A DNA stretch of 64,000 bases from a virus (lineage: Duplodnaviria > Caudoviricetes). The notes under the pieces were generated by a model. The model saw only the letters and a program-made list of their open reading frames with translations, made no database searches and had not been told where the DNA came from. The stretch is from positions 9,022-73,021 of IMG/VR virus record IMGVR_UViG_3300030708_002923; one strand, 5' to 3'. A program made the position numbers and the translations under genes. Position 1 is the stretch's first letter; the number at the start of each line of letters is the position of its first letter. This document shows, piece by piece, positions 1 to 9,644 of the stretch.

Positions 1-700
1 CCCGGCACGTTTCACGGACGGCGGGGGAGTGCCAAGACCCCAACACCTGCGGGCGAGCGCCACTAAGGCTTTGAGCAACATCAAGGCCCCGTCTATAAAT
101 CCACCGCGACGAATCGCAGCGCTTACAACGTGTCGAGGTGGTAGAAATGCGATGCGGCGAGCAGTAGCGAGGCCGAGGGATTAGTAACCCCGAAGACTAC
201 TGCAAGGTATCCCCCCACCTTACACGGGGGGACTGTGAGGCCGTGGCCCGCAGTGAACACCGCCCCGGCGAGCGTATCGCCGCCCCTTTCTACATAGCCG
301 CCGCAAGGGATTACCCTGGATAATACGGCGGGCAATACCGAAAACCCCTACAACGGTCGCACCTTGCTGAGGGCTTCAATCCAAGAGGGATAAAAACGCT
401 TCCCTGTTCTATTGATAGGTAGGGGTCGGGCTCGTACCTCGGCCCCGTTTCATTACATAGCCGCCGCCGAGGCTCCCCCTATGATTCAGAGAGGGGTTGA
501 GCCCCGGCGGGCGGTGGACCTTTCCCGGTTCGCTGTCCTGCGATTCGTCGCTGTTGACATGCCAACTACCGCAAATGTAGGATAGCCCGGTTTTAACGGG
601 GCTTTTCGATGTATTTTGTACCGATAGGGCGGGGGGCCTACCCCTGATTTTTACACCTTGTCCCGCTGTTGGTCCGGTTGCCATGTCAACACCAGCACGG
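1..700 (+). ncRNA. Candidate large structured RNA (or structured terminal DNA); may begin before the window
   Basis: No credible ORF. Dense nested stems: 161-167/197-203, 210-216/226-232, 344-351/419-426, rod 461-514, 552-561/682-691; UUCG hairpin 540-551; G-U wobbles favour the + strand. Confidence 0.4.
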
Positions 701-846
701 AATAAGCCGCTTCAAAGGCTGCATATCACGTAGCCGATGGGTATTTTCATTCGGGGGCTTGAGAGGTGGCGCGGACCAACCCCGCATAAAATCCCCGCCA
801 TATTCGCCTGTACTGGTACGAATGACCGAACCTTACCCCCCTTGTA

Positions 847-1057
847 CCCTAACCTCTGCCCTAACCTATCGACGAGGTTAGGGCACCCGATAGCCCGCCT
901 TCAAGGTGCCTTATCGGTTGATGCCCTAACCTACCCTAACCTCTGGCCCAACATTTTGAACCTCTCGGATTTTCTCGACTGTCTCGTTCTTCTCTCTCTA
1001 CTATATTGTATTACCTACCTACCTATTCTGTCTAATAGGTTAGGGTAGGTTAGGGCA
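847..1057. repeat. CCCTAACCT/AGGTTAGGG iteron cluster with inverted symmetry (possible origin, packaging or protein-binding site)
   Basis: CCCTAACCT at 847, 859, 924, 934; reverse complement at 875, 1037, 1047; perfect 21-bp inverted repeat 922-942/1037-1057; 11-bp IR 857-867/875-885. Confidence 0.85.
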
Positions 1058-1135
1058 ATAGAGAATAAACGAGGTTCAACCGGGCTTTTCAACCTGCCCC
1101 AACGTAGGGGCACCACTGCCCCAACGGGTAGGCAC

Positions 1136-1164
1136 TTGACACCCTTTACCCCTTCCCTTAGACT
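1136..1164 (+). promoter_or_regulatory. sigma70-type early promoter
   Basis: TTGACA (1136-1141), 17 bp, TAGACT (1159-1164), just upstream of the first ORF; preceded by CAC as at 6040 and 12231. Confidence 0.75.
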
Positions 1165-1200
1165 GACATACCAGCCAAACCCTAACAGACTGGAGATATC

Positions 1201-1530
1201 ATGCCTGTACTCAAACGATACAAGCCGCACGGCGGCTATCCCTTGGCGCCTGGAGCCGGATGGGCGACTGTCCGAAAACTGACCAACAGAGAGGCGGTCA
1301 TGATTCTGAATGCCTCCGAGACTATGGCTGAGCGTGGCCCTGATGGATTGCGCGACACCATCGCGGGCAAGTGCTTTGTAGCTTTGAATCGATTCGGTCG
1401 CCCTAAAGCTGGCGAGTGGAACCAACCCTGTCCCGCCGGTACTCGTGCCATCTACCACCACGGTGGTGGTGGTGGCGTGTGGTCCGGTTTCTATATCATC
1501 GAAAAACTAAAAACCCTGGAGCAATCATGA
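1201..1530 (+). CDS. Hypothetical early protein (109 aa)
   Basis: CTGGAG RBS upstream; first gene after the promoter; ATGA overlap with the next gene. Confidence 0.7.
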   Translation: MPVLKRYKPHGGYPLAPGAGWATVRKLTNREAVMILNASETMAERGPDGLRDTIAGKCFVALNRFGRPKAGEWNQPCPAGTRAIYHHGGGGGVWSGFYIIEKLKTLEQS

Positions 1531-2087
1531 TGAACAAAAAGACACGCACAATCGATGGCACAACCTATACCGTGACCTATGGATTCGATACCAAGTTTGC
1601 CGCGAAGCATAATCAACGGCCGTACTTCAGCATCACCCTTGACGTAACCGAGGGGAAACGATGGGTAAGCGGTGGCGCGGATTCTGATACCATCGCGGAG
1701 GTATTCCCCGAACTTGCCAACGTTCTACAATGGCACCTGGCTGACCACTCCGCGACACCTATACACTACGTGGCCAACACCATGTACTGGCGGGACCACT
1801 TCCCAACGCAGGCCGAGGTACAAGTATCTGAGGATGAGCCAACGCAAACGGTTACCATGGCTCCAAAGTATGAGGACCGGTACAACTACGGACCCGAGAG
1901 ACTCGCGGCTCACTTGAAGTCTTGCATGGCTTGGGGCGCGTTACCGTCAGAGCGTGACTGGACGGGCGACAGCCCCGAGACGTGGGACCGTGACACGCTC
2001 CGTGTGTACCTCGTGACACGTCAAGCGGCCTTGATGGATAACATGCGCGCGGACCTTGCGGCCGTAGGCGTGACCATTCCCAACTAA
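1527..2087 (+). CDS. Conserved phage hypothetical protein (186 aa)
   Basis: Start reassigned to ATG 1527 after the CTGGAG RBS; RPYFSIT...FPELA...WHL...PIHYVAN motif resembles a widespread phage family. Confidence 0.75.
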   Translation: MMNKKTRTIDGTTYTVTYGFDTKFAAKHNQRPYFSITLDVTEGKRWVSGGADSDTIAEVFPELANVLQWHLADHSATPIHYVANTMYWRDHFPTQAEVQVSEDEPTQTVTMAPKYEDRYNYGPERLAAHLKSCMAWGALPSERDWTGDSPETWDRDTLRVYLVTRQAALMDNMRADLAAVGVTIPN

Positions 2088-2123
2088 TCAACCGGGGCCC
2101 CGTGCCCCACTGGAGCAAACAAA

Positions 2124-2414
2124 ATGCCAATAGACCAATCATTCAAGTCCTATTCCTCTGCGCTTGCAGAATATGTAAACCATCCTGACTACTACAAGGG
2201 CCGATGGGCTGTACGCTGTACCGTAATCGCAACGGGCCAAGTCGGTAGGCGGGTATTCGACAGTCACTCGGATGCGACAGCATTTGTAGATGACTTGGTG
2301 GCGCGGGGGGTATGCACTCCCGGTGATGGCAAGTACCGCATTCGTTTCGAGCGCGTTGACCCCTTGCCTGGATTCCCTAAAGCCCTGGAGCAATCATGCA
2401 ACGCATCAAGTTAG
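2124..2414 (+). CDS. Hypothetical protein
   Basis: ATG directly after the hairpin/RBS repeat. Confidence 0.65.
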   Translation: MPIDQSFKSYSSALAEYVNHPDYYKGRWAVRCTVIATGQVGRRVFDSHSDATAFVDDLVARGVCTPGDGKYRIRFERVDPLPGFPKALEQSCNASS

Positions 2415-2626
2415 AAAACCTCGAAAACGTAGTAGACCGTATCAATTCGGCCGGTGTCGGCACCTACATGGTCGACCATACAAGCGGCGGCGTCCGCCTA
2501 TCCATGCTGAACGAAACCGGCGGAAGGCGTGCCATCACGCCAATAGGAACCAAGCGCGAAACCTACTACCGCATGCACGCCTTTCTGGATGGCGTTGAGG
2601 CTGCCCAACACGGGGGGCAATCATGA
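2396..2626 (+). CDS. Hypothetical protein (76 aa)
   Basis: CCCTGGAGCAATCATG start; ATGA overlap with the next gene. Confidence 0.7.
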   Translation: MQRIKLENLENVVDRINSAGVGTYMVDHTSGGVRLSMLNETGGRRAITPIGTKRETYYRMHAFLDGVEAAQHGGQS

Positions 2627-2946
2627 GCGCCATCATCGACACCATTAACCTGAGCGCCTGTAGCGATTGTCTTCTATTCATCGCCAACGGTGACGAGCCA
2701 GAAGGTGACGAAACCCTACCCGCTCGCATCCAATCGGAATGGACCGTATCCGACGATACATGTGACCACCATGGCGCCGTCCACGGTTCCCTATGGTGGG
2801 ACATCGTGTACGGTGGCGAGCATGAAAGCGAGGCCGACGAGCACAGCGGTTCCCTCGGTTTCTCATGGTCATCGTGCGAGTGTTGCGGTTCAAGTCTCGG
2901 AGGCGACCGCTACCCCTTGACCGCTATCCTCAGACGTAAACCCTGA
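2623..2946 (+). CDS. Hypothetical Cys-rich (Zn-binding?) phage protein
   Basis: CSDC...ANG and FSWSSCECCGSSLGGDR motifs. Confidence 0.7.
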   Translation: MSAIIDTINLSACSDCLLFIANGDEPEGDETLPARIQSEWTVSDDTCDHHGAVHGSLWWDIVYGGEHESEADEHSGSLGFSWSSCECCGSSLGGDRYPLTAILRRKP

Positions 2947-2958
2947 ACCCCTGGAGCA

Positions 2959-3831
2959 ATGATGTACCCCGAAACGTTCTGGAATAAACCCGTGCCCGCC
3001 AAGTACCGCAAGGCGCTGGAGGGCTTGGGGCTACCCCTTGACATAAGCCGGCGCGACCTATTCCGGTTCGTTGCCTTCACCGATTCAGGCAAGCCCCGAA
3101 ACATTCTCGGGTCTTCCTCTAAAGTAGAGAAGGGCGAAGGCGCTGGTGTTCTCACCGCAATCCTGTACCTGTCGCCCGGTCGTGAGGCCGGTATCAATAT
3201 GTGCCCAATGGCGGCAGGCTGTGAAGCTGGATGCCTTGGGACTACCTCGCGCCGGATGACATGGCCTACCCATAAGAAAGCGCGGGTATGCAAAACGGTA
3301 TGGCTGATGCTATTCCGTGACCACTTCCTACGGCGCCTGTCTTGGGAGATAATCGGCCACGCTATGACGGCGGAAGCCATGGATATGAAACCCGCTATCC
3401 GCCTGAACGGGTCGAGTGATGTACTGTGGGAAAACTACAACGTACCTCAGAGCCATCCAGAGGTGCAGTTCTACGACTATACGAAGCTGCCAGCGAAAGC
3501 CCGCGCAGGCGTGCCGGATAACTACCACCTAACGTTCAGCCTATGCGAGCGCCCCGAGAGCAAGGGTCGAGCCCTGGAGTGGCTCAACGCAGGCCGAAAC
3601 GTGGCCATGGTCGTGGGCGGTGAGTCTACAACCGACAGGCCAAGCGTAATGCTGAAGGCGGCAAAGGCGGCGGCAGCTACTATCATCGAGCGCGGAACCT
3701 TCGAGGGCTTCCCCGCTGTAAGCGGTGACAATGATGACATTCGATTCGATGACCCACCCGGCGCCTGGGTCGTGCTCTATGCCAAGAGTGGCGCCCTGAC
3801 AGACAGTACTGGATTCGTCCAGCGATTCTAA
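2959..3831 (+). CDS. GP88-family protein (Cys cluster, possibly Fe-S/radical-SAM-like)
   Basis: LYLSP...CPMAAGCEAGCL, IRLNGSSDV, VQFYDYTK, NYHLTFS, GDNDDIRFDDP motifs. Confidence 0.8.
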   Translation: MMYPETFWNKPVPAKYRKALEGLGLPLDISRRDLFRFVAFTDSGKPRNILGSSSKVEKGEGAGVLTAILYLSPGREAGINMCPMAAGCEAGCLGTTSRRMTWPTHKKARVCKTVWLMLFRDHFLRRLSWEIIGHAMTAEAMDMKPAIRLNGSSDVLWENYNVPQSHPEVQFYDYTKLPAKARAGVPDNYHLTFSLCERPESKGRALEWLNAGRNVAMVVGGESTTDRPSVMLKAAKAAAATIIERGTFEGFPAVSGDNDDIRFDDPPGAWVVLYAKSGALTDSTGFVQRF

Positions 3832-3863
3832 CAATGAGGGGCTTCGGCCCCACTGGAGAGACA

Positions 3864-3959
3864 ATGGGAACACTTGAAGACCGATACCAAAACTATGTTC
3901 AATGCATGATTGACCTTGGTCAACCATACGTGGACTTTGACACGTGGCTCAACCGATAG
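3864..3959 (+). CDS. Small protein, 31 aa (MGTLEDRYQNYVQCMIDLGQPYVDFDTWLNR); below the ORF-track cutoff
   Basis: ATG after the hairpin/CTGGAG repeat; fills the gap up to the next repeat. Confidence 0.65.
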   Translation: MGTLEDRYQNYVQCMIDLGQPYVDFDTWLNR

Positions 3960-3972
3960 CCCTGGAGCAAAC

Positions 3973-4194
3973 ATGAGACTGTCCTATAGATTCTTCGATA
4001 CCCGACAGGAAGCACGGAAGTTCTTTCAGTCCAATAACCTCACACTGGAGGCGTTCTATCACACTTGGCACGGCGAGTGGTTGATTTGCTATCCAGACCC
4101 GCACGCCATCGGGTGTGAGCACCTGCCCGAACTTCAACCCGGTTGCGATGAAATCCTTTGGGAAATGGACCTAATCGTAGAGTGTGAAGGCTAA
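3973..4194 (+). CDS. Hypothetical protein (73 aa)
   Basis: Start reassigned after CCCTGGAGCAAAC. Confidence 0.65.
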   Translation: MRLSYRFFDTRQEARKFFQSNNLTLEAFYHTWHGEWLICYPDPHAIGCEHLPELQPGCDEILWEMDLIVECEG

Positions 4195-4231
4195 CTAATC
4201 AACCGGGGCTTCGGCCCCACTGGAGCAAACA

Positions 4232-4591
4232 ATGAGCAAACGAGCAAAGACATATCATGAGATAGAAGACAACCATTGTATCTTGAAGATACGACAGGAA
4301 CGCGAGGAACGGGACGAATACAACAAGTCAATCGGTAAATCTCAACGGGGCTTTGAACTTCACAGCCCGAGACTTCGGGCCAATGCGAGCCTTAGAACGG
4401 TGGTGAAACATGCGCGAGACGCGGCCGACTTTGCGCTTTACCGTTATCGAGTGGAGCGCGATTGGTGGCACACACTCCGAGATACAAGCCAGGTCAGAGA
4501 GTATCAAAACAAAGGGCATGAAGTGGAAATACTTCGAGACAGGTGGCACACACTCGAAGAAATCGCGCAGCACCTTGAACGACTCACTTAA
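4232..4591 (+). CDS. Hypothetical protein (119 aa)
   Basis: Flanked by two full repeats; short internal duplication (RDWWHTLRD / RDRWHTLEE). Confidence 0.7.
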   Translation: MSKRAKTYHEIEDNHCILKIRQEREERDEYNKSIGKSQRGFELHSPRLRANASLRTVVKHARDAADFALYRYRVERDWWHTLRDTSQVREYQNKGHEVEILRDRWHTLEEIAQHLERLT

Positions 4592-4623
4592 TCAACCGGG
4601 GCTTCGGCCCCACTGGATACCCC

Positions 4624-4827
4624 ATGCACAAAAAGAAATACCGCGTCATCTACCGATGCCGCAGCACCCATTTACCAAGGTATCAATACGACTGTGGCGG
4701 TTACGTTAGCCGAGGTGTTCTCCAACGTAGCCGTATCGTGTCGGCTGCTGACGCTGCCCAAGCCGTCCTGAAGGCTCGCACGTTCGATGATTACATCGAA
4801 CTTGTGACTGTCTACGAGTCTGCCTAA
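4624..4827 (+). CDS. Hypothetical protein (67 aa)
   Basis: Flanked by two full repeats. Confidence 0.6.
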   Translation: MHKKKYRVIYRCRSTHLPRYQYDCGGYVSRGVLQRSRIVSAADAAQAVLKARTFDDYIELVTVYESA

Positions 4828-4864
4828 CCTAATCAACCGGGGCTTCGGCCCCACTGGAGCAAAC

Positions 4865-5137
4865 ATGCAAACGAATGAAAACGCATTTATCGAACGTTGT
4901 TTCTGTATGTCACCGAAGCATCGAGACTGGAACCAAGCATGGGAAGCGATTGCGCGCCATGAATCCAACCGAGAAATGAACGATAAAATGACCGCAGCCT
5001 GCCCGTTTAGCGGCGAGTCATGGCAATACATGGGCAGCTACAACAAGCCACAAGGGAACGTCCACACGTTCCGCCATCGCCGTCACCCTGGAGTGAACGG
5101 TGAGCGCGTCAACGTGCGCGTGTTCATCCCCAACTAA
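4865..5137 (+). CDS. Conserved phage hypothetical protein (90 aa)
   Basis: GESWQYMGS...HTFRHRRHP motif; repeat-associated RBS. Confidence 0.7.
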   Translation: MQTNENAFIERCFCMSPKHRDWNQAWEAIARHESNREMNDKMTAACPFSGESWQYMGSYNKPQGNVHTFRHRRHPGVNGERVNVRVFIPN

Positions 5138-5161
5138 ACCGATAGCCCTGGAGCAATCATC

Positions 5162-5353
5162 ATGACACTACAAGAGGAACTGGCAGCGTTGAAGCTGGCC
5201 GACATAAAAGACAAGCTACTGCGCTACTTGCTCAAAGACGTGGAAGCGAACTTCGAGCACTTGACGAATGAGGAACGCACCATCATCGGTGACCCTGAAA
5301 CATTCAGCGCGCTGTTGGAATCCATTGGGATTGACCAGCACGGAACCCGATAG
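5162..5353 (+). CDS. Hypothetical protein (63 aa)
   Basis: Short-form repeat RBS. Confidence 0.65.
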   Translation: MTLQEELAALKLADIKDKLLRYLLKDVEANFEHLTNEERTIIGDPETFSALLESIGIDQHGTR

Positions 5354-5389
5354 CATACCCGACACACACAAACAAACAGGAGGTGAGTG

Positions 5390-5599
5390 ATGCCTACATA
5401 CCAAATACACTGCACAGCAGCGATTGAAATATACGCAACCGTCGATGCCGATAGTATAGAGCATGCCAAGCGCATCGCTTCAAACATTACGATTGTAAAC
5501 TACGCCAATGAAACGGTAGGCGCCGAGACAGACGACGGAGAGATAACTGAAGTCATCGGCCATGAGGTAGCTGGTATTACAATCACAGGAGGTGAGTAA
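5390..5599 (+). CDS. Hypothetical protein
   Basis: AGGAGGTG RBS; ends GGE*. Confidence 0.7.
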   Translation: MPTYQIHCTAAIEIYATVDADSIEHAKRIASNITIVNYANETVGAETDDGEITEVIGHEVAGITITGGE

Positions 5600-6018
5600 T
5601 GAGCCCTACCGCAAGATTCAAAGAGTCCATCAACGGTAGCGATGTAGTCATCGACCTACGGCCTGGACAGACCTTGACCCACGTAAAGTATGAGCCTACC
5701 GATGAGGGATGGGACCGCACTGTACACACGTGGCATTACGATGCCGATAGCAAAGTCATCACAGTCAACTACTTCAATGAAGGCCGCGACTGTGATGGCT
5801 ACATGTCAACCCACTACGAACGCGAATGCTCGGTTGACCGGCTACGCTCTCGAACAGTGAAGCATCCGACTGGTGGACGGTGGGAGCCATTCACCTTCGA
5901 CGATGGCACCACTGCCCACGAGTGGGTGACCACTTGGGAAGAACAGACAGGCTGGCCTGACTGGAGAGAGGTCGGCTACGAGTACCATGACCAGAACGCC
6001 AGAGCGATGGGCTACTAA
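5599..6018 (+). CDS. Conserved phage hypothetical protein (139 aa)
   Basis: TAATG coupling; PTDEGW, GRDCDG and AMGY motifs. Confidence 0.75.
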   Translation: MSPTARFKESINGSDVVIDLRPGQTLTHVKYEPTDEGWDRTVHTWHYDADSKVITVNYFNEGRDCDGYMSTHYERECSVDRLRSRTVKHPTGGRWEPFTFDDGTTAHEWVTTWEEQTGWPDWREVGYEYHDQNARAMGY

Positions 6019-6039
6019 ACTTTACCTATGCTGACACAC

Positions 6040-6069
6040 TTGACAGCCAATACCAAACAGGTGTATAAC
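6040..6069 (+). promoter_or_regulatory. sigma70-type promoter for ardC
   Basis: TTGACA (6040-6045), 18 bp, TATAAC (6064-6069). Confidence 0.7.
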
Positions 6070-6099
6070 CCTAATGAGCAAACAAACCGGAGATTCAAC

Positions 6100-7053
6100 A
6101 TGGCTAAAAAACCAACATTCAACACGCACCAAGTCATCACCGATATTATCTTGGCTTCGATGGAGAAGGGCGTACAGCCCTGGCGCAAAGGCTGGACCGC
6201 ATTGGGTGGCGCCTTGAGCCGTCCCGTCAGTGGAGGTACAGGCAATCCATACAACGGTATCAACGTGATTCTGCTATGGGCGGCACAGTCCGAGCGTGGC
6301 TACCACTCCGATACTTGGCACACGTACAAGGGTGCCCAAGGCAAGGGCGGTCAGGTACGCAAGGGTGAGAAGGGTACACGCATCGTCAAGTGGTTGTTCC
6401 TGCCATTCAAAGAGAACGGACAGGTAAAGCTTGATGCCAACGGTGAGCCCGTGACCTTCGCAAAGATGAGGCTGTACACAGTCTTCAACGCTTGCCAGAT
6501 TGATTGGGCAGAGGGTAGCGAGCATGCCCCTGGTCCTGCTCCAACAGTGGAGGAACACGATGGTTCTCAGGCCGGTGACGAGTACGAAGATGCCAAAGTC
6601 ATTCTGGATTCGTGGGCCGATGAGGTCACAATCAGACATGGCGGCGACTCAGCATTCTATCGACCATCGGATGACTTGATTCAACTGCCCACCTTTGAAC
6701 AGTTTGACAGTGAAGCCGAATACTTCTCGACTGCCTTTCATGAGGCGATTCACAGCACGGGCCACAGTACCCGCCTGAACCGCTTCAAAAAGGAACGCAA
6801 GGGTAGCTACAAGCAAGCCTACGCATTCGAGGAACTGGTAGCAGAGTTGGGTGCAGCGTTCTTGTGTGCGGATGCTGGTATCAACCAGCCAGAAGAACCA
6901 CGCGAGGACCACGCGCAGTACTTGGCCCACTGGCTCGAAGTACTCAAGGGTGACCCGAAGGCCATCGTGTCTGCGGCATCCAAGGCAGAGAAGGCAGCGA
7001 AGCTTGTAGTGGCAAAGGCTGGCGAGGCCGGTCAACAGCAGGCAGCGAAGTAA
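6100..7053 (+). CDS. ardC: ArdC-family antirestriction protein (ssDNA-binding N-domain plus zincin-like domain)
   Basis: PWRKGW, YNGINVILLW, GGQVRKGEKGTRIV, AFYRPSDDLI, FHEAIHSTGH (HExxH), YAFEELVAELGAAFL; start reassigned to ATG 6100 (GGAG RBS). Confidence 0.93.
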   Translation: MAKKPTFNTHQVITDIILASMEKGVQPWRKGWTALGGALSRPVSGGTGNPYNGINVILLWAAQSERGYHSDTWHTYKGAQGKGGQVRKGEKGTRIVKWLFLPFKENGQVKLDANGEPVTFAKMRLYTVFNACQIDWAEGSEHAPGPAPTVEEHDGSQAGDEYEDAKVILDSWADEVTIRHGGDSAFYRPSDDLIQLPTFEQFDSEAEYFSTAFHEAIHSTGHSTRLNRFKKERKGSYKQAYAFEELVAELGAAFLCADAGINQPEEPREDHAQYLAHWLEVLKGDPKAIVSAASKAEKAAKLVVAKAGEAGQQQAAK

Positions 7054-7065
7054 ACCGGGAGAGGG

Positions 7066-7096
7066 AAGCAGTTTGCGGTCTGCTTATCAAAACCGC
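7066..7096 (+). promoter_or_regulatory. Putative H-type RNA pseudoknot in the ardC downstream spacer
   Basis: S1 AAGCAG 7066-7071/CTGCTT 7080-7085; S2 GCGGT 7075-7079/ACCGC 7092-7096; loops TTT and ATCAAA. Confidence 0.45.
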
Positions 7097-7123
7097 CTAC
7101 CTTTCAACCATCATGGAGAACAA

Positions 7124-7357
7124 ATGATGATTCGATACCTAATCGTTGACACGGAAATAGACCCCAATGAAACAGGCTCTCAGGGCATGTCTGCGGCATT
7201 CGTTCGCAACAGCAAAGACAGAGTCATGCACACAACTAACATTGAAAAGGCTCGCCGATGGCGCGACAGTCGCAATGACGGCATCGACGAGGGAGAGCCT
7301 GGTTTTTCGATTCTCGAAATAAACACAGAGACGGGCGCACAACGCCTTGTTTCATAA
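7124..7357 (+). CDS. Hypothetical protein (77 aa)
   Basis: TGGAG RBS before ATG 7124. Confidence 0.65.
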   Translation: MMIRYLIVDTEIDPNETGSQGMSAAFVRNSKDRVMHTTNIEKARRWRDSRNDGIDEGEPGFSILEINTETGAQRLVS

Positions 7358-7377
7358 CAAACAACAGGAGGTGAATG

Positions 7378-7659
7378 ATGAACATGCCAGAAGGATTGAA
7401 GTACTGGACCGCTGACGAGGTAGCCGAATGCCTTGATGGAATCGGGCCTGACCTATATCGCAAGCTGTGGGAGATTCTTGCTGAAGCCAAGAACCCTACA
7501 CCACTTGGGGGCGACGGTTCCAATGGAACAGTCGAGACACCAGATGGTCGGCTGGACGAGGACAACGACGACAAGGCCCCACACTGGTGGGTCAAGCTTA
7601 CGCCAGCCGAGCAGACAACTATCGCATCAGCATACATCGCTGAACGTGGAGGTGAGTGA
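7378..7659 (+). CDS. Hypothetical protein
   Basis: AGGAGGTG RBS; ends GGE*. Confidence 0.7.
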   Translation: MNMPEGLKYWTADEVAECLDGIGPDLYRKLWEILAEAKNPTPLGGDGSNGTVETPDGRLDEDNDDKAPHWWVKLTPAEQTTIASAYIAERGGE

Positions 7660-7979
7660 TGCCTAAGTATACAGCAGGACCATGGGAAGCGTCGGAAGGC
7701 TACCCCTCGGACATCTGGCACGTTGACATGCCGAGTCGAGGATATTCCGTCGTCGTATCCCGAGCAGAAGAAGATTGGGACGTGGCTGTCGAGGAAGTGC
7801 AGGCCAACGCACACCTGATCGCGGCGGCACCTGAGTTGCTGGATGCTTTGATCATCACACTCGATCTCGCCGTGGGTCACGCCTGTGACTCTCGGGGAAT
7901 CACACCAGCAGAGTGCGCAGACTGGGAGTGGGTGAAGCAGGCTCGCAAACTCATCGCGAAAGCGAAAGGAGGTGAGTGA
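7659..7979 (+). CDS. Conserved phage hypothetical protein (xGPW...ANAHLIAAAPELL family)
   Basis: Motif typical of a widespread phage family; ends GGE*. Confidence 0.8.
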   Translation: MPKYTAGPWEASEGYPSDIWHVDMPSRGYSVVVSRAEEDWDVAVEEVQANAHLIAAAPELLDALIITLDLAVGHACDSRGITPAECADWEWVKQARKLIAKAKGGE

Positions 7980-8005
7980 TGCCGAGAAGATGGCAAGGAA
8001 GGTGA
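7979..8005 (+). pseudogene. 8-codon mini-ORF MPRRWQGR, apparent remnant of the 5' end of gene 8186
   Basis: Coupled ATG after the motif; shares AGATGGCAAGGA with the start of 8186 (MGRWQG). Confidence 0.5.
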
Positions 8006-8009
8006 AGTA

Positions 8010-8186
8010 ATGGAAAACAATGAAGCAAACCGATTGAAGTTAGCCGAGGCCATTTGGGAAACGCTAAGTCTCGACGACTTACATGAGCAGTTCATCTTCC
8101 AAAGTCTCGAACGATACAAAACAGATCCCGACGCATTCGAGGAAGATTGTGCGGCCATGGATCTCGACAATGATGGAGGTGAGTGA
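8010..8186 (+). CDS. Small acidic protein, 58 aa (MENNEANRLKLAEAIWETLSL...DNDGGE); below the ORF-track cutoff
   Basis: GGAAGGTG RBS; ends GGE* coupled to the next ATG. Confidence 0.7.
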   Translation: MENNEANRLKLAEAIWETLSLDDLHEQFIFQSLERYKTDPDAFEEDCAAMDLDNDGGE

Positions 8187-8674
8187 TGGGTAGATGGCAA
8201 GGACCAGAACACCAATACTCAGAGGCTCGACGCGCCTACGAACAACGTGAAGAATATCGCTATGAGCGATGGAAGGAAAGGAATCCAGAATGTCATAAGT
8301 GCGGAGAGCGTGAGCACGAAGACAAGATGACCGACATGTATGGGGATGACTGGTGTACTCATTGTGTCAGTGAGCACGCATTCGAGTGTGACGTGTGCGG
8401 CAAGACACACGCTAACGAGTACCTGACCGACGTAGACTTAACGATGGGCGAGTACGTATGCGACGAGTGCGACGAGAAGTGTGCAGCCGACAAGACGCGC
8501 CATCATGCTCCAGTAGAGATCCCGATCGGTCACATGGAATATGTACTATGGACTATGGAGAACGCTGCGAAGGACGAACCATATGAAGGTACTCAACCGG
8601 GCAACGCAAAGAAATGGTTGAGAGAAAGCATTGACCGGATCAAACAATCAATGCCCAAAGAGGACGGTGAGTGA
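8186..8674 (+). CDS. Multi-CxxC zinc-finger hypothetical protein
   Basis: CHKC, CTHC, CDVC, CDEC. Confidence 0.75.
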   Translation: MGRWQGPEHQYSEARRAYEQREEYRYERWKERNPECHKCGEREHEDKMTDMYGDDWCTHCVSEHAFECDVCGKTHANEYLTDVDLTMGEYVCDECDEKCAADKTRHHAPVEIPIGHMEYVLWTMENAAKDEPYEGTQPGNAKKWLRESIDRIKQSMPKEDGE

Positions 8675-8892
8675 TGCAACGGTTCGATGAAGTGATGGTC
8701 CGGCGAAGTGTCGGGTGGGGCTCCGGTTGGGAGTATGAATACGGCTACGTAAAGTTTCTATACTCAGAGACGCCTTGGGTGAGGGTGAGAGTTTTCAAGA
8801 GCAAGCGTTTTGGACCCTCATCTTCGACGTTCCATGTCGATAGTGTATTTCCTATCTACGGTCCTATTCAAGCGCATGCAGGAGGTGAGTGA
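8674..8892 (+). CDS. Hypothetical protein
   Basis: Coupled start and stop motifs. Confidence 0.65.
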   Translation: MQRFDEVMVRRSVGWGSGWEYEYGYVKFLYSETPWVRVRVFKSKRFGPSSSTFHVDSVFPIYGPIQAHAGGE

Positions 8893-9380
8893 TGAACATA
8901 TTCGTTTTACACCCTATGCCTGACTTGGCTGCGCGTATGCAGTGTGACCGGCATGTAGTCAAGATGACCCTTGAGACTGCACAGATGCTCTCTACGGCCA
9001 TCAATGAGTTGGGTGGGCAGGCATCCTACAAGTCTGCCCACGTCAACCATCCGTGCTCTGTGTGGGCACGGGAAACGCTCGGCAACTTCGTATGGTTGTG
9101 GGAGCACGGAATCAACCTCGCCCAAGAGTACACCGCAAGGTACGGGAAGGTACACAAGTCGGAAGTAGTCATCCGTGACTGCTACCACACAATGATGCAA
9201 CGTCAGCTACTCAAGAGCCGAAGGCTGACACCACACCCACTGTGTATGCCTGACGAGTACAAAACAGACTGTGTGTATGAATCGTATCGAAACTTCTACA
9301 TAGGTGAGAAGTCACGATTCGCACGATGGAACAAAACAACTGAGTCACCGTCATGGTGGCCGCAACAAACAAGGACATGA
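8892..9380 (+). CDS. Pyrimidine-dimer DNA glycosylase / DenV-like protein
   Basis: MNIFVL...CDRHVVKMTLETAQMLS, YKSAHVNHPCSVWAR, EYTARYGKVHKS motifs. Confidence 0.8.
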   Translation: MNIFVLHPMPDLAARMQCDRHVVKMTLETAQMLSTAINELGGQASYKSAHVNHPCSVWARETLGNFVWLWEHGINLAQEYTARYGKVHKSEVVIRDCYHTMMQRQLLKSRRLTPHPLCMPDEYKTDCVYESYRNFYIGEKSRFARWNKTTESPSWWPQQTRT

Positions 9381-9383
9381 GTG

Positions 9384-9644
9384 ATGATTATCTATGTACT
9401 GGACGACGGAGAGACGTGGACCCTGAGTGAGCCCACGGCGGTAACGATCACGGATGAGCAACTGACGCGCATTGAAGGCGGTGAGAAGTTGTACCACGTC
9501 GTACCCGATTGGGATGAGCAACAGGGTGACGATGCCGATGACTTTTTCATTCGGGCTGGCATCGCTGCCCGAGAAGCACTGAAGGAAATCAAGAGAGACT
9601 ACACAAACAGCATCGTAGATGCTCAGAACCAGGGAGATGAGTAA
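9384..9644 (+). CDS. Hypothetical protein
   Basis: Degenerate coupling motif. Confidence 0.65.
   Translation: MIIYVLDDGETWTLSEPTAVTITDEQLTRIEGGEKLYHVVPDWDEQQGDDADDFFIRAGIAAREALKEIKRDYTNSIVDAQNQGDE

Follow-up and report, generated by a model that had tools for sequence, protein, structure and literature searches.

A modular early gene array jointed at repeated intercistronic junctions in an uncultured marine phage

The sequence considered here, hereafter 'the window', is a 64,000-nucleotide stretch of DNA corresponding to bases 9022-73021 of a 73,021-bp IMG/VR virus record (IMGVR_UViG_3300030708_002923; Caudoviricetes), with that record being rated as complete. One large minus-strand open reading frame (ORF) is split by the record's two ends, and the record therefore represents a circularly permuted whole genome. 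Early and replication genes are found on the plus strand over window positions 1.2-22.6 kb, with minus-strand virion genes making up the remainder, and the public runs which contain the stretch are marine metagenomes, with no RNA run listed among them. The subject of this study is a series of small genes toward the start of the early region, those between 1.5 and 5.2 kb, which are separated by five long and five short copies of what I term here 'junctions', that is, repeated elements which lead from the end of one gene to the start of the next. Neither the long nor the short junction has a copy elsewhere in the window. The array of early genes is modular, and these junctions are its joints.

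The long junction consists, in order, of a stop codon, a linker lacking G, a GGGGC-UUCG-GCCCC hairpin, a single A, the sequence CTGGAG, a spacer, and ATG. The short junction is instead CCCTGGAGCAA followed by ATG. These elements end 5-8 nt 5' of an ORF-opening ATG, and the gap between hairpin and CTGGAG is 1 nt. The 21-mer made up of the hairpin plus ACTGGAG is present on the plus strand exactly at 3838, 4205, and 4839, and with one mismatch at 4598, versus zero occurrences in 100 shuffles. As 37-nt copies (repeat family D1) the long form is seen at 2085, 3828, 4195, 4588, and 4829, with the copies at 4195 and 4829 being 100% identical and a 29-nt core being the same at 4196-4224 and 4589-4617; in the copy at 2085 the loop is of 5 nt, CCCGT, and the copy at 3828 is without the TAATCAACC linker. 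Exact copies of CCCTGGAGCAA are found at 1514, 2383, 2949, 3960, and 5146, and one-mismatch copies within the long forms, i.e., 10 matches versus 0.8 expected, while ACCGATAG precedes CCCTGGAGCAA only at 3952 and 5138. A further, degenerate joint, GGGGGGCAATC-ATGA, is present at 2609-2626. The junctions also provide stop codons: g2 and g9 (genes are numbered from g1, as below) stop at the TAA of TAATCAACC and g7 at the TAG of CGATAG, and a protein that runs into the coupled short form has the C-terminus LEQS-stop, with an ATGA stop/start overlap. The junction repeats are strand-specific. A preliminary description of this DNA had claimed repeated hairpin and ribosome-binding-site (RBS) elements, and all of the repeats that it listed are present and are specific to the early operon. 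It had claimed as well a shared IPN-stop tail, which is indeed seen, at the ends of g2 and g11 (20 of 25 nt alike; family D18); paralogy of these two genes was considered and rejected (BLASTP E 0.39), the tail being a local 3' similarity only.

The array can be followed from a candidate sigma-70-like promoter (TTGACA, 17 nt, TAGACT; 1136..1164, found by consensus scan and, as with all features of this paragraph, on the plus strand). The sequence just 5' of g1, including the second hexamer of this promoter, is kept in close relatives. The first gene, g1 (1201..1530, 109 amino acids, or aa), belongs to a 27-member 90% cluster and is the first gene in all close relatives; its LEQS-stop codons contain a short junction, CCCTGGAGCAATC-ATG, with ATGA overlap (1514..1529), this and the further junctions having been located by repeat search unless stated otherwise. 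The ORFan cassette g2 follows (1527..2087, 186 aa), its stop being the TAA of the long junction with the CCCGT loop (2085..2123, hairpin 2094-2108), and then g3 (2124..2414, 96 aa), inside the 3' end of which is the short junction of g4 (2383..2398). The cassette g4 (2396..2626, 76 aa), found like g2 and g3 as an ORF, ends in the degenerate coupled junction GGGGGGCAATC-ATGA (2609..2626, from sequence), beyond which are the Cys-rich g5 (2623..2946, 107 aa, phrog_3034), a short junction (2944..2961), and g6 (2959..3831, 290 aa). The long junction without the TAATCAACC linker (3829..3863, hairpin 3838-3851) leads to the mini-cassette g7 (3864..3959, 31 aa), whose stop is the TAG of a short junction with a CGATAG prefix (3952..3975), and that junction leads to g8 (3973..4194, 73 aa). 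Three long junctions then follow in succession: one (4192..4231, hairpin 4205-4218) ahead of g9 (4232..4591, 119 aa), a second (4589..4623, hairpin 4598-4611) with GGAT replacing GGAG ahead of g10 (4624..4827, 67 aa), and a third (4825..4864, hairpin 4839-4852) ahead of g11 (4865..5137, 90 aa); these, as well as those before g3 and g7, were identified by folding in addition to repeat search. The ACTGGATACC variant of the second of the three is also present in a distant relative, G002. A final short junction, again with a CGATAG prefix (5135..5161), precedes g12 (5162..5353, 63 aa), the last gene of the CTGGAG type.

Relatives were drawn from Tara Oceans, ENA, JGI, and Logan assemblies, with contigs found via the 90%-identity cluster members. 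Contigs with the same promoter region and g1 carry at least seven different arrays, with shared blocks having 85-97% nucleotide identity and differences between arrays consisting of deletions, replacements, and changed gene order. Against the window's g1 g2 g3 g4 g5 g6 g7 g8 g9 g10 g11 g12 may be set (F labels being for genes other than these) the L036 type, g1 g5 F23 F26 g2 F31 F35 F36 F21 g12; the L044 type, g1 g2 g5 g6 F37 F40 g8 g9 F44 F25 g12, from which g3 is missing and which has no ArdC; L048, g1 g2 g5 F23 F23 g3 F34 F31 F41 F42 g10 g11 F36 g12, in which g3 has moved; the L051 type, which includes g2' F30 F35 g9' g8' F42; L032/L033, in which g2, behind one long junction, is joined directly to g11 by another, with a short junction then leading to F25; and L082/L084, representing one more type, where the gene after g8 is different again. 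Order itself is changed where g5 is ahead of g2, as in L036, or where g9 is ahead of g8, as in L051. The gene following g8 accordingly is g9, F42, or another, depending on the relative, and g2 may follow g1 or a long junction or may be located in the setting of an unrelated phage. Junction form also is not fixed to a gene: g5, g8, g9, and g12 may each carry a long, short, or coupled junction depending on the genome, with g5 having three junction types in three genomes and g12 having the long form in L048.

Logan contigs from four runs, compared with window 1-9500, add joints that are seen at the level of individual letters. One connects 2103 to 4848 through 15 letters that match on either side, as contig sequence confirms directly. 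A second connects 4580 to 4822 and removes exactly the 241-nt repeat period (family D5) which holds g10. In others g7, whose place in relatives is taken by approximately 435 nt of other genes, is exchanged for 438 other letters, the ends being 3858 and 3956, or g10 plus g11 are exchanged for 409 letters, the ends being 4617 and 5161; replacements thus run from directly after ACTGGAG or ACTGGAT up to the junction that follows or the ATG there. The long form also occurs ahead of g4 in one relative. The repeats are identical over up to 37 nt, and metagenome assemblers can mis-join at such places, so the arrays might be argued to be chimeric, mixed-strain assemblies which have collapsed at repeats. 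That the arrays are artefacts in this manner is nevertheless barely credible. Each of the three array types examined for recurrence was found again in other, independent samples, assemblers, and archives, with 99.2-99.96% identity across as much as 7.5 kb; the letters shared at key joints, 15-29 nt, are fewer than the 31-letter words of the Logan index (an assembler k of 31 being assumed); and the flanking blocks diverge from the window by 3-15% on their own.

Where the arrays differ was quantified using all ordered pairs of five arrays along with 2000 random-placement trials. Of the 82 distinct homology-block ends, 81 are located between -45 and +12 nt relative to a start codon, versus a random mean of 12.6 and maximum of 26. 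Positions of right block ends are -7 to +12 and those of left block ends -9 to -41, with adjacent blocks sharing a 10-40 nt overlap that is the junction itself. The gain, loss, and reshuffling of genes with breakpoints in the repeat, as the preliminary description had claimed, is thus what the relatives display, and the comparison of relatives which it had proposed, now carried out, finds gene presence or absence as well as gene order differing at junctions. The two halves of a junction furthermore travel with different genes. Linker and loop variant go with the upstream gene: g2 keeps the CCCGY loop behind it whether its next neighbour is g3, g5, or g11 (the CCCGT-loop variant following g2 in L044, L048, and L032, ahead of three different genes), and the GGCTAAC-TAATCAACC linker follows g8 whether g9, F42, or a new gene comes next. 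The spacer after CTGGAGCAA goes instead with the downstream gene, i.e., CAAACAAA with g3, ATCATC with g12, and CAAACA with g9. The crossover zone therefore consists of the hairpin's 3' arm plus CTGGAGCAA for exchanges between long junctions and of the 9-nt core alone for exchanges between long and short ones. CTGGAG is 5' of 45 of 53 early starts across the five related arrays, and CTGGAGC(A/G)A is 5' of 36 of the 53, with CTGGAG preceding none of 24 later starts.

Joints of phage mosaics commonly are located at gene borders. The junctions, it follows from such a perspective, could be expression signals only, that is, RBSs with or without a hairpin that are kept by selection, the mosaic resulting from illegitimate recombination occurring anywhere in combination with selection for intact genes. 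Consistent with this, a second, hairpin-less dialect of joint and the ArdC gene, both located downstream of g12, likewise are homology-block boundaries, the ArdC indel too breaking at borders, and some crossovers share only the approximately 9-nt core. Adjacent blocks, however, overlap by 10-40 nt of identical junction rather than meeting at arbitrary intergenic points, one deletion is exactly one repeat period, junction halves segregate with neighbouring genes as crossovers inside the element predict, and the same core is found in 45 of 53 early joints. Junctions serving solely as expression signals consequently are considered to be unlikely.

Very probably, instead, the early array is a cassette array that is reshuffled at its junctions, with the junctions serving as portable intercistronic connectors. 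Under this cassette reading, window 1.2-5.4 kb would be the earliest operon, transcribed by the host, of this uncultured marine phage of 73 kb. Each junction would give a stop codon to any incoming reading frame and then a short linker lacking G, with the long form adding a 5-bp G/C hairpin that has an extra-stable tetraloop. The class-specific Shine-Dalgarno (SD) core, CTGGAGCAA, a spacer of 1-6 nt, and ATG would follow, with CTGGAG presumably being the downstream cistron's ribosome site. Cassettes would share the same 9-37 nt at both ends, such that recombination, given these identical ends, should always rebuild a working stop, RBS, and start. Junction-junction recombination, whether within one genome or between co-infecting relatives, could in this manner delete, insert, replace, or reorder whole genes. 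The exchange itself would be recombination via short homologies, for which the YqaJ/RecT pair encoded by the phage or, alternatively, template switching could plausibly be responsible.

A number of considerations weigh against this cassette reading. Operon structure, hairpin function, and SD use are each read from the DNA rather than from transcripts. Breakpoints at gene borders are also to be expected given selection following random illegitimate recombination. The homology available to long/short exchange, 9-24 nt, is below that used efficiently by RecT-type annealases. Upon the folding of 812 natural cassette combinations, the hairpin provides no gain in SD accessibility, with the mean unpaired probability from SD to AUG being 0.504 for the native hairpin, 0.502 for a linker lacking G, 0.508 for a deletion, and 0.462 for a broken arm; insulation of the RBS, as a main role for the hairpin, was dropped given this lack of gain over linker or deletion. 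Between syntenic copies the junctions drift like neutral sequence, e.g., UUCG to CACG in L044, and strong constraint on the loop therefore is not supported. Stem variation, too, is mostly extension of the G/C run with few true compensatory changes, so conservation may reflect copying instead of structural selection.

Both recombination genes that the preliminary description had claimed were found by Pfam: a YqaJ-type exonuclease (18482..19432, plus strand; PF09588, E 1.9e-18) and a RecT-type single-strand annealing protein (19429..20247, plus strand; PF03837, E 4.8e-28). As judged from gene content, this pair is a plausible agent of junction exchange. A different possibility is that a dedicated structure- or site-specific recombination, integron-like and acting on the folded hairpin, moves cassettes, possibly via circles. 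The joints do contain hairpins, and are oriented and uniform, and the mini-circles of the PeSL elements, discussed below, provide a precedent. Hairpin-less short junctions, however, exchange equally well, including with long ones, the SD core, 3' to the hairpin, is where crossovers are located, and a 14-nt hairpin is far below the size of attC. No integrase was noticed among those window proteins which were scanned, representing part of the ORFs, nor any circle-type joint among the contigs examined. One joint that 'goes back 2706' was considered as a possible circle and rejected, as it is a relative's gene order with g2 behind a long junction. Dedicated recombination of this sort accordingly is regarded as highly improbable.

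Turning to the RNA, the hairpin is the centroid fold, with SD and AUG predicted to be left unpaired. No U-tract follows any hairpin, every one being followed instead by ACUGGAG, and a terminator scan of the plus strand lists none of these hairpins, which agrees with the earlier suggestion that this is not a standard terminator; an intrinsic terminator was rejected on that basis. The consensus scan of the window also finds no promoter-like site at junctions. The hairpins could yet be part of a PeSL-like regulatory cassette, serving as attenuators or terminators for host RNA polymerase that generate expression gradients, with recombination being a by-product. PeSL stem-loops likewise are polyG then polyC and act as terminators (PMC2839356), and hairpins here are 6-17 nt after stops and travel with the upstream gene. 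U-tracts nevertheless are missing, unlike at terminator-like sites in the same window (422-446 and 630-646), the gap between hairpin and SD is 1 nt, and the element is promoter-less, so termination would silence all downstream genes. Attenuation is in consequence quite improbable. 

Three further candidates were rejected. A RegB-type cleavage site does not fit as GGAG here is followed by C-A-A, with the T4 RegB/S1 consensus being GGAGRAYARAA, that is, A-rich after GGAG and with C very rare at positions 5-6 (PMC1702504). A lambdoid nut site (boxA/boxB), of which an operon has one or two, each having a boxA ahead of a hairpin whose protein-binding loop is conserved, does not fit with loops that vary (UUCG, GCAA, CUUG, CACG, CCCGU, CCA) nor with five copies in 3 kb, and a phage RNA polymerase promoter at the G run does not fit with only approximately 5-9 nt being conserved 5' and with sigma-70-like promoters at 1136 and 6041. 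Across the wider family the distance from the hairpin to the upstream stop, 6-17 nt, is tighter than that from hairpin to SD, 1-95 nt. This tight distance, together with co-travel with the upstream gene, favours a role in the upstream cistron. The hairpin could therefore, if only tentatively, be viewed as functionally belonging to that cistron, as a non-terminating barrier to 3' exonucleases or a processing landmark in a polycistronic mRNA. The rest of the probability is taken up by 5'-end protection, reinitiation or pausing, or no RNA role.

The junction type is also found in more distant relatives, i.e., L020, G002 (consisting of L028 plus L021), and L022, in which ArdC is 60-76% identical and which share none of g1-g11 as judged by tblastn. 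Their early joints consist of a stop, a C/A-rich linker lacking G which ends in CAACC or CCACC, a 5-6 bp G-then-C stem, a loop (UUCG, GCAA, CUUG, GCAG, CCCGU, UCCGC, or CCA), an A, an SD, and ATG. At one position, a 31-nt junction is all that L020 and G002 have in common. With the same junction type being found where g1-g11 are not shared, the junction type outlives the genes that it joins. Over the lineage as a whole, the stem is GGGGC/GCCCC or GGGGGC/GCCCCC in 25 of approximately 27 elements, with hairpins of 14-16 nt.

Beyond the lineage, the pattern GGGGC-N4-GCCCC-ACTGGAG is present in 22 IMG/VR contigs representing 10 sequence groups, none of them related to this phage, with loops of UUCG, UACG, or UAAG. 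At least nine of the 10 groups are mutually unrelated (all but one chance hit), and in 21 of the 22 contigs there is a start codon 5-9 nt 3' and a G-poor linker 5'. In the 21 contigs having a single copy of the hairpin-ACTGGAG-ATG module (L012-L019, L056-L069), which come from environmental phages of at least nine unrelated groups, GC content is 40-54%, and in six contigs of one group of kin the module is ahead of the same small gene (MTLRNG...). Bacterial genomes totalling 596 Gb, searched for the UUCG form only, contain two matches to the 21-mer; these are in Planctomycetota metagenome-assembled-genome contigs of 68-70% GC, without a start codon, and were taken as chance. It is conceivable, if doubtful, that a cUNCGg hairpin plus A plus CUGGAG plus AUG is a standard connector across lineages, whether an adaptor for ORFan exchange or a recognition site for an RNA factor. 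If so, then unrelated phages would share one adaptor for the swapping of ORFan cassettes or, alternatively, the module would be a site for a conserved host or phage RNA factor governing early-gene translation or decay.

Several observations on relatives stand apart from the above. A junction in which a sigma-70-like promoter (TTGACA ... TAAATA) replaces the hairpin before the CTGGAG core is present at 9679-9744 of L036, where it sits between g2 and F31, and at 5453-5518 of L082; its content is PeSL-like. Homologues of g2 and g4 (74-91% aa identity) are found in early regions of differently organised phages, L034 (a 72-kb ENA contig), L035, and L076, and cassettes therefore move beyond the immediate lineage. 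The joints in these phages are hairpin-less variants of the SD core, GGAGCAAAAA in L034 and TTGGAGCAGTC in L035 and L076.

As proteins the cassettes are ORFans. Among g1-g6 and g8-g11, searches of Pfam, PHROGs, and NCBIfam give one named family, of unknown function (GP88, or phrog_1617, for g6), and three unannotated PHROGs, with no NCBIfam match for the cassettes scanned; a protein atlas, for g1 and g2 only, gave nothing usable. The label of candidate anti-host genes comes only from position, that is, from a first operon, an antirestriction-type neighbour, and 7.8 kb free of GATC. Megablast and blastn of the early array against 50,697 phage records gave no useful match, Rfam has no family match in window 1-8000, and the large terminase is at most 28% identical to that of any cultured phage. 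Besides ArdC-N/zincin, YqaJ, and RecT, the named genes of the phage include a VapE-like primase-helicase and a DEAD helicase.

From 5371 the joints change to the second dialect, GGAGGTGAGTG-ATG, with the stop overlapping the start, as seen over window 5371-9380. It gives unrelated proteins GGE, DGE, or similar ends, and also is a homology-block boundary between relatives. The genes g13 and g14 (5371..6018, plus strand; families D6 and D7), for example, are joined by GGAGGTGAGT-ATG with a GGE-stop C-terminus, and their joints are block boundaries. A second candidate sigma-70-like promoter (TTGACA, 18 nt, TATAAC; 6041..6070, plus strand) was read from the sequence and is conserved in L020; the consensus scan misses it due to its last base. 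The ArdC-N plus zincin metallopeptidase gene, of antirestriction type, is next (6100..7053, plus strand). It is present in some relatives and absent from others, with related contigs joining approximately 6062/6068 to 7059, and the L044-type genome, without ArdC, yet keeps conserved hairpin-containing sequence 3' of it. In L020, g12 is downstream of ArdC. At window 7968-8210 there is a second-dialect junction, an 8-codon ORF (MPRRWQGR-stop), and then a 58-aa gene (8010-8186), with the next gene beginning MGRWQGPE, which looks like a duplicated junction and gene start left by cassette insertion.

Compositionally the cassette region is distinct, with 56% G+C across the first 4 kb versus 41-50% for most of the genome. 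GATC is absent from window 1-7816 (approximately 29 being expected from composition) and occurs at 5.2 per kb in the remainder of the window; CTAG is absent from, and AATT present once in, window 1-7816. GATC is likewise nearly missing from the early arrays in L020, G002, and most close relatives, L022 and L051 being exceptions. This depletion suggests restriction avoidance in first-expressed DNA. Just 5' of the first promoter, at window 840-1060, iterons of the CCCTAACC / GGTTAGGG type, in both orientations, flank an AT/pyrimidine-rich spacer; G002 has a similar block at the same place, and this is a candidate origin or packaging site. Two copies of a GC hairpin followed by the motif CATAGCCGCCGC are in the gene-free region (window 266-310 and 421-470), with the combination also found 5' of the G002 early operon and within the L022 array.

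Unknown genes for host takeover and counter-defence are found chiefly in the early regions of phages, the fast turnover of which is only partly understood. PeSL elements represent one solution to such turnover, in T4-type phages, and this locus very probably a second, in an unrelated and widespread ocean lineage. Stop/hairpin/RBS connectors would keep each new pair of neighbours translatable, with cassettes being promoter-less, and in this they would be a natural analogue of the standardised junctions of synthetic operon design. At least seven natural arrays behind one first gene also represent a test bed for cassette flux, minimal natural homology, and ORFan function.

The closest known analogue of this array is that of PeSL (promoter-early stem-loop) elements, this being an analogy. 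In T4-type phages these short motifs, repeated between genes, lie to either side of ORFans within early regions that are hyperplastic (Arbiol et al. 2010, PMC2839356; Comeau et al. 2014, PMC4122927). A PeSL consists of a sigma-70 promoter plus a working terminator, making each cassette its own transcription unit, and the PeSL work identified no integrase or dedicated recombinase beyond the usual phage recombination machinery (PMC2839356). Found here as well are a stable polyG-then-polyC stem-loop and, between close relatives, indels and replacements that end in the motif. The motif here differs in being without promoter or U-tract, as a stop/hairpin/Shine-Dalgarno/start connector inside what would be one polycistronic operon, in having a hairpin-less form, and in belonging to an unrelated 73-kb marine lineage, while mini-circles, which arise by exchange between adjacent motifs, are a PeSL feature.

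A second likeness, again by analogy rather than homology, is to the SAS and ESAS of Cluster K mycobacteriophages, where a conserved asymmetric RBS-containing repeat is present in one orientation 3-8 nt 5' of some starts (Pope et al. 2011, PMC3203893); the repeats here similarly are asymmetric, contain a putative RBS, and end 5-8 nt before a subset of starts. Approximately half of SAS copies have an inverted repeat just upstream, and SAS function is unknown (PMC3203893). The SAS 13-mer, however, has another sequence, the arms of ESAS are imperfect and 17 bp long with spacers of 4-13 nt, and neither is reported as a recombination joint (PMC3203893). Presence of an ESAS also is a conserved property of each gene family, whereas here one gene may have the long form in one genome and the short form in another.

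Intercistronic stabilising stem-loops are familiar from REP in malE-malF and from the puf operon. As with these, the hairpin here is stable, GC-rich, without a U-tract, and just after a stop, and might be expected to block 3' exonucleases, this role being one suggested by its form and placement. The REP and puf stem-loops, by contrast, are not fused to the next RBS, are not identical repeats along an operon, and are not known as cassette joints. Integron attC sites, in turn, are imperfect palindromes of 57-141 nt that are recombined by IntI. Ordered, promoter-less, single-gene cassettes behind one promoter, each with a hairpin-forming site, are a point in common, while here the hairpin is 14 nt, crossovers are in the SD core, hairpin-less joints work, and no integrase was seen among the proteins scanned. 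What is known already, then, is PeSL-type modular shuffling of ORFans, and what is new are translation-level connectors within one operon.

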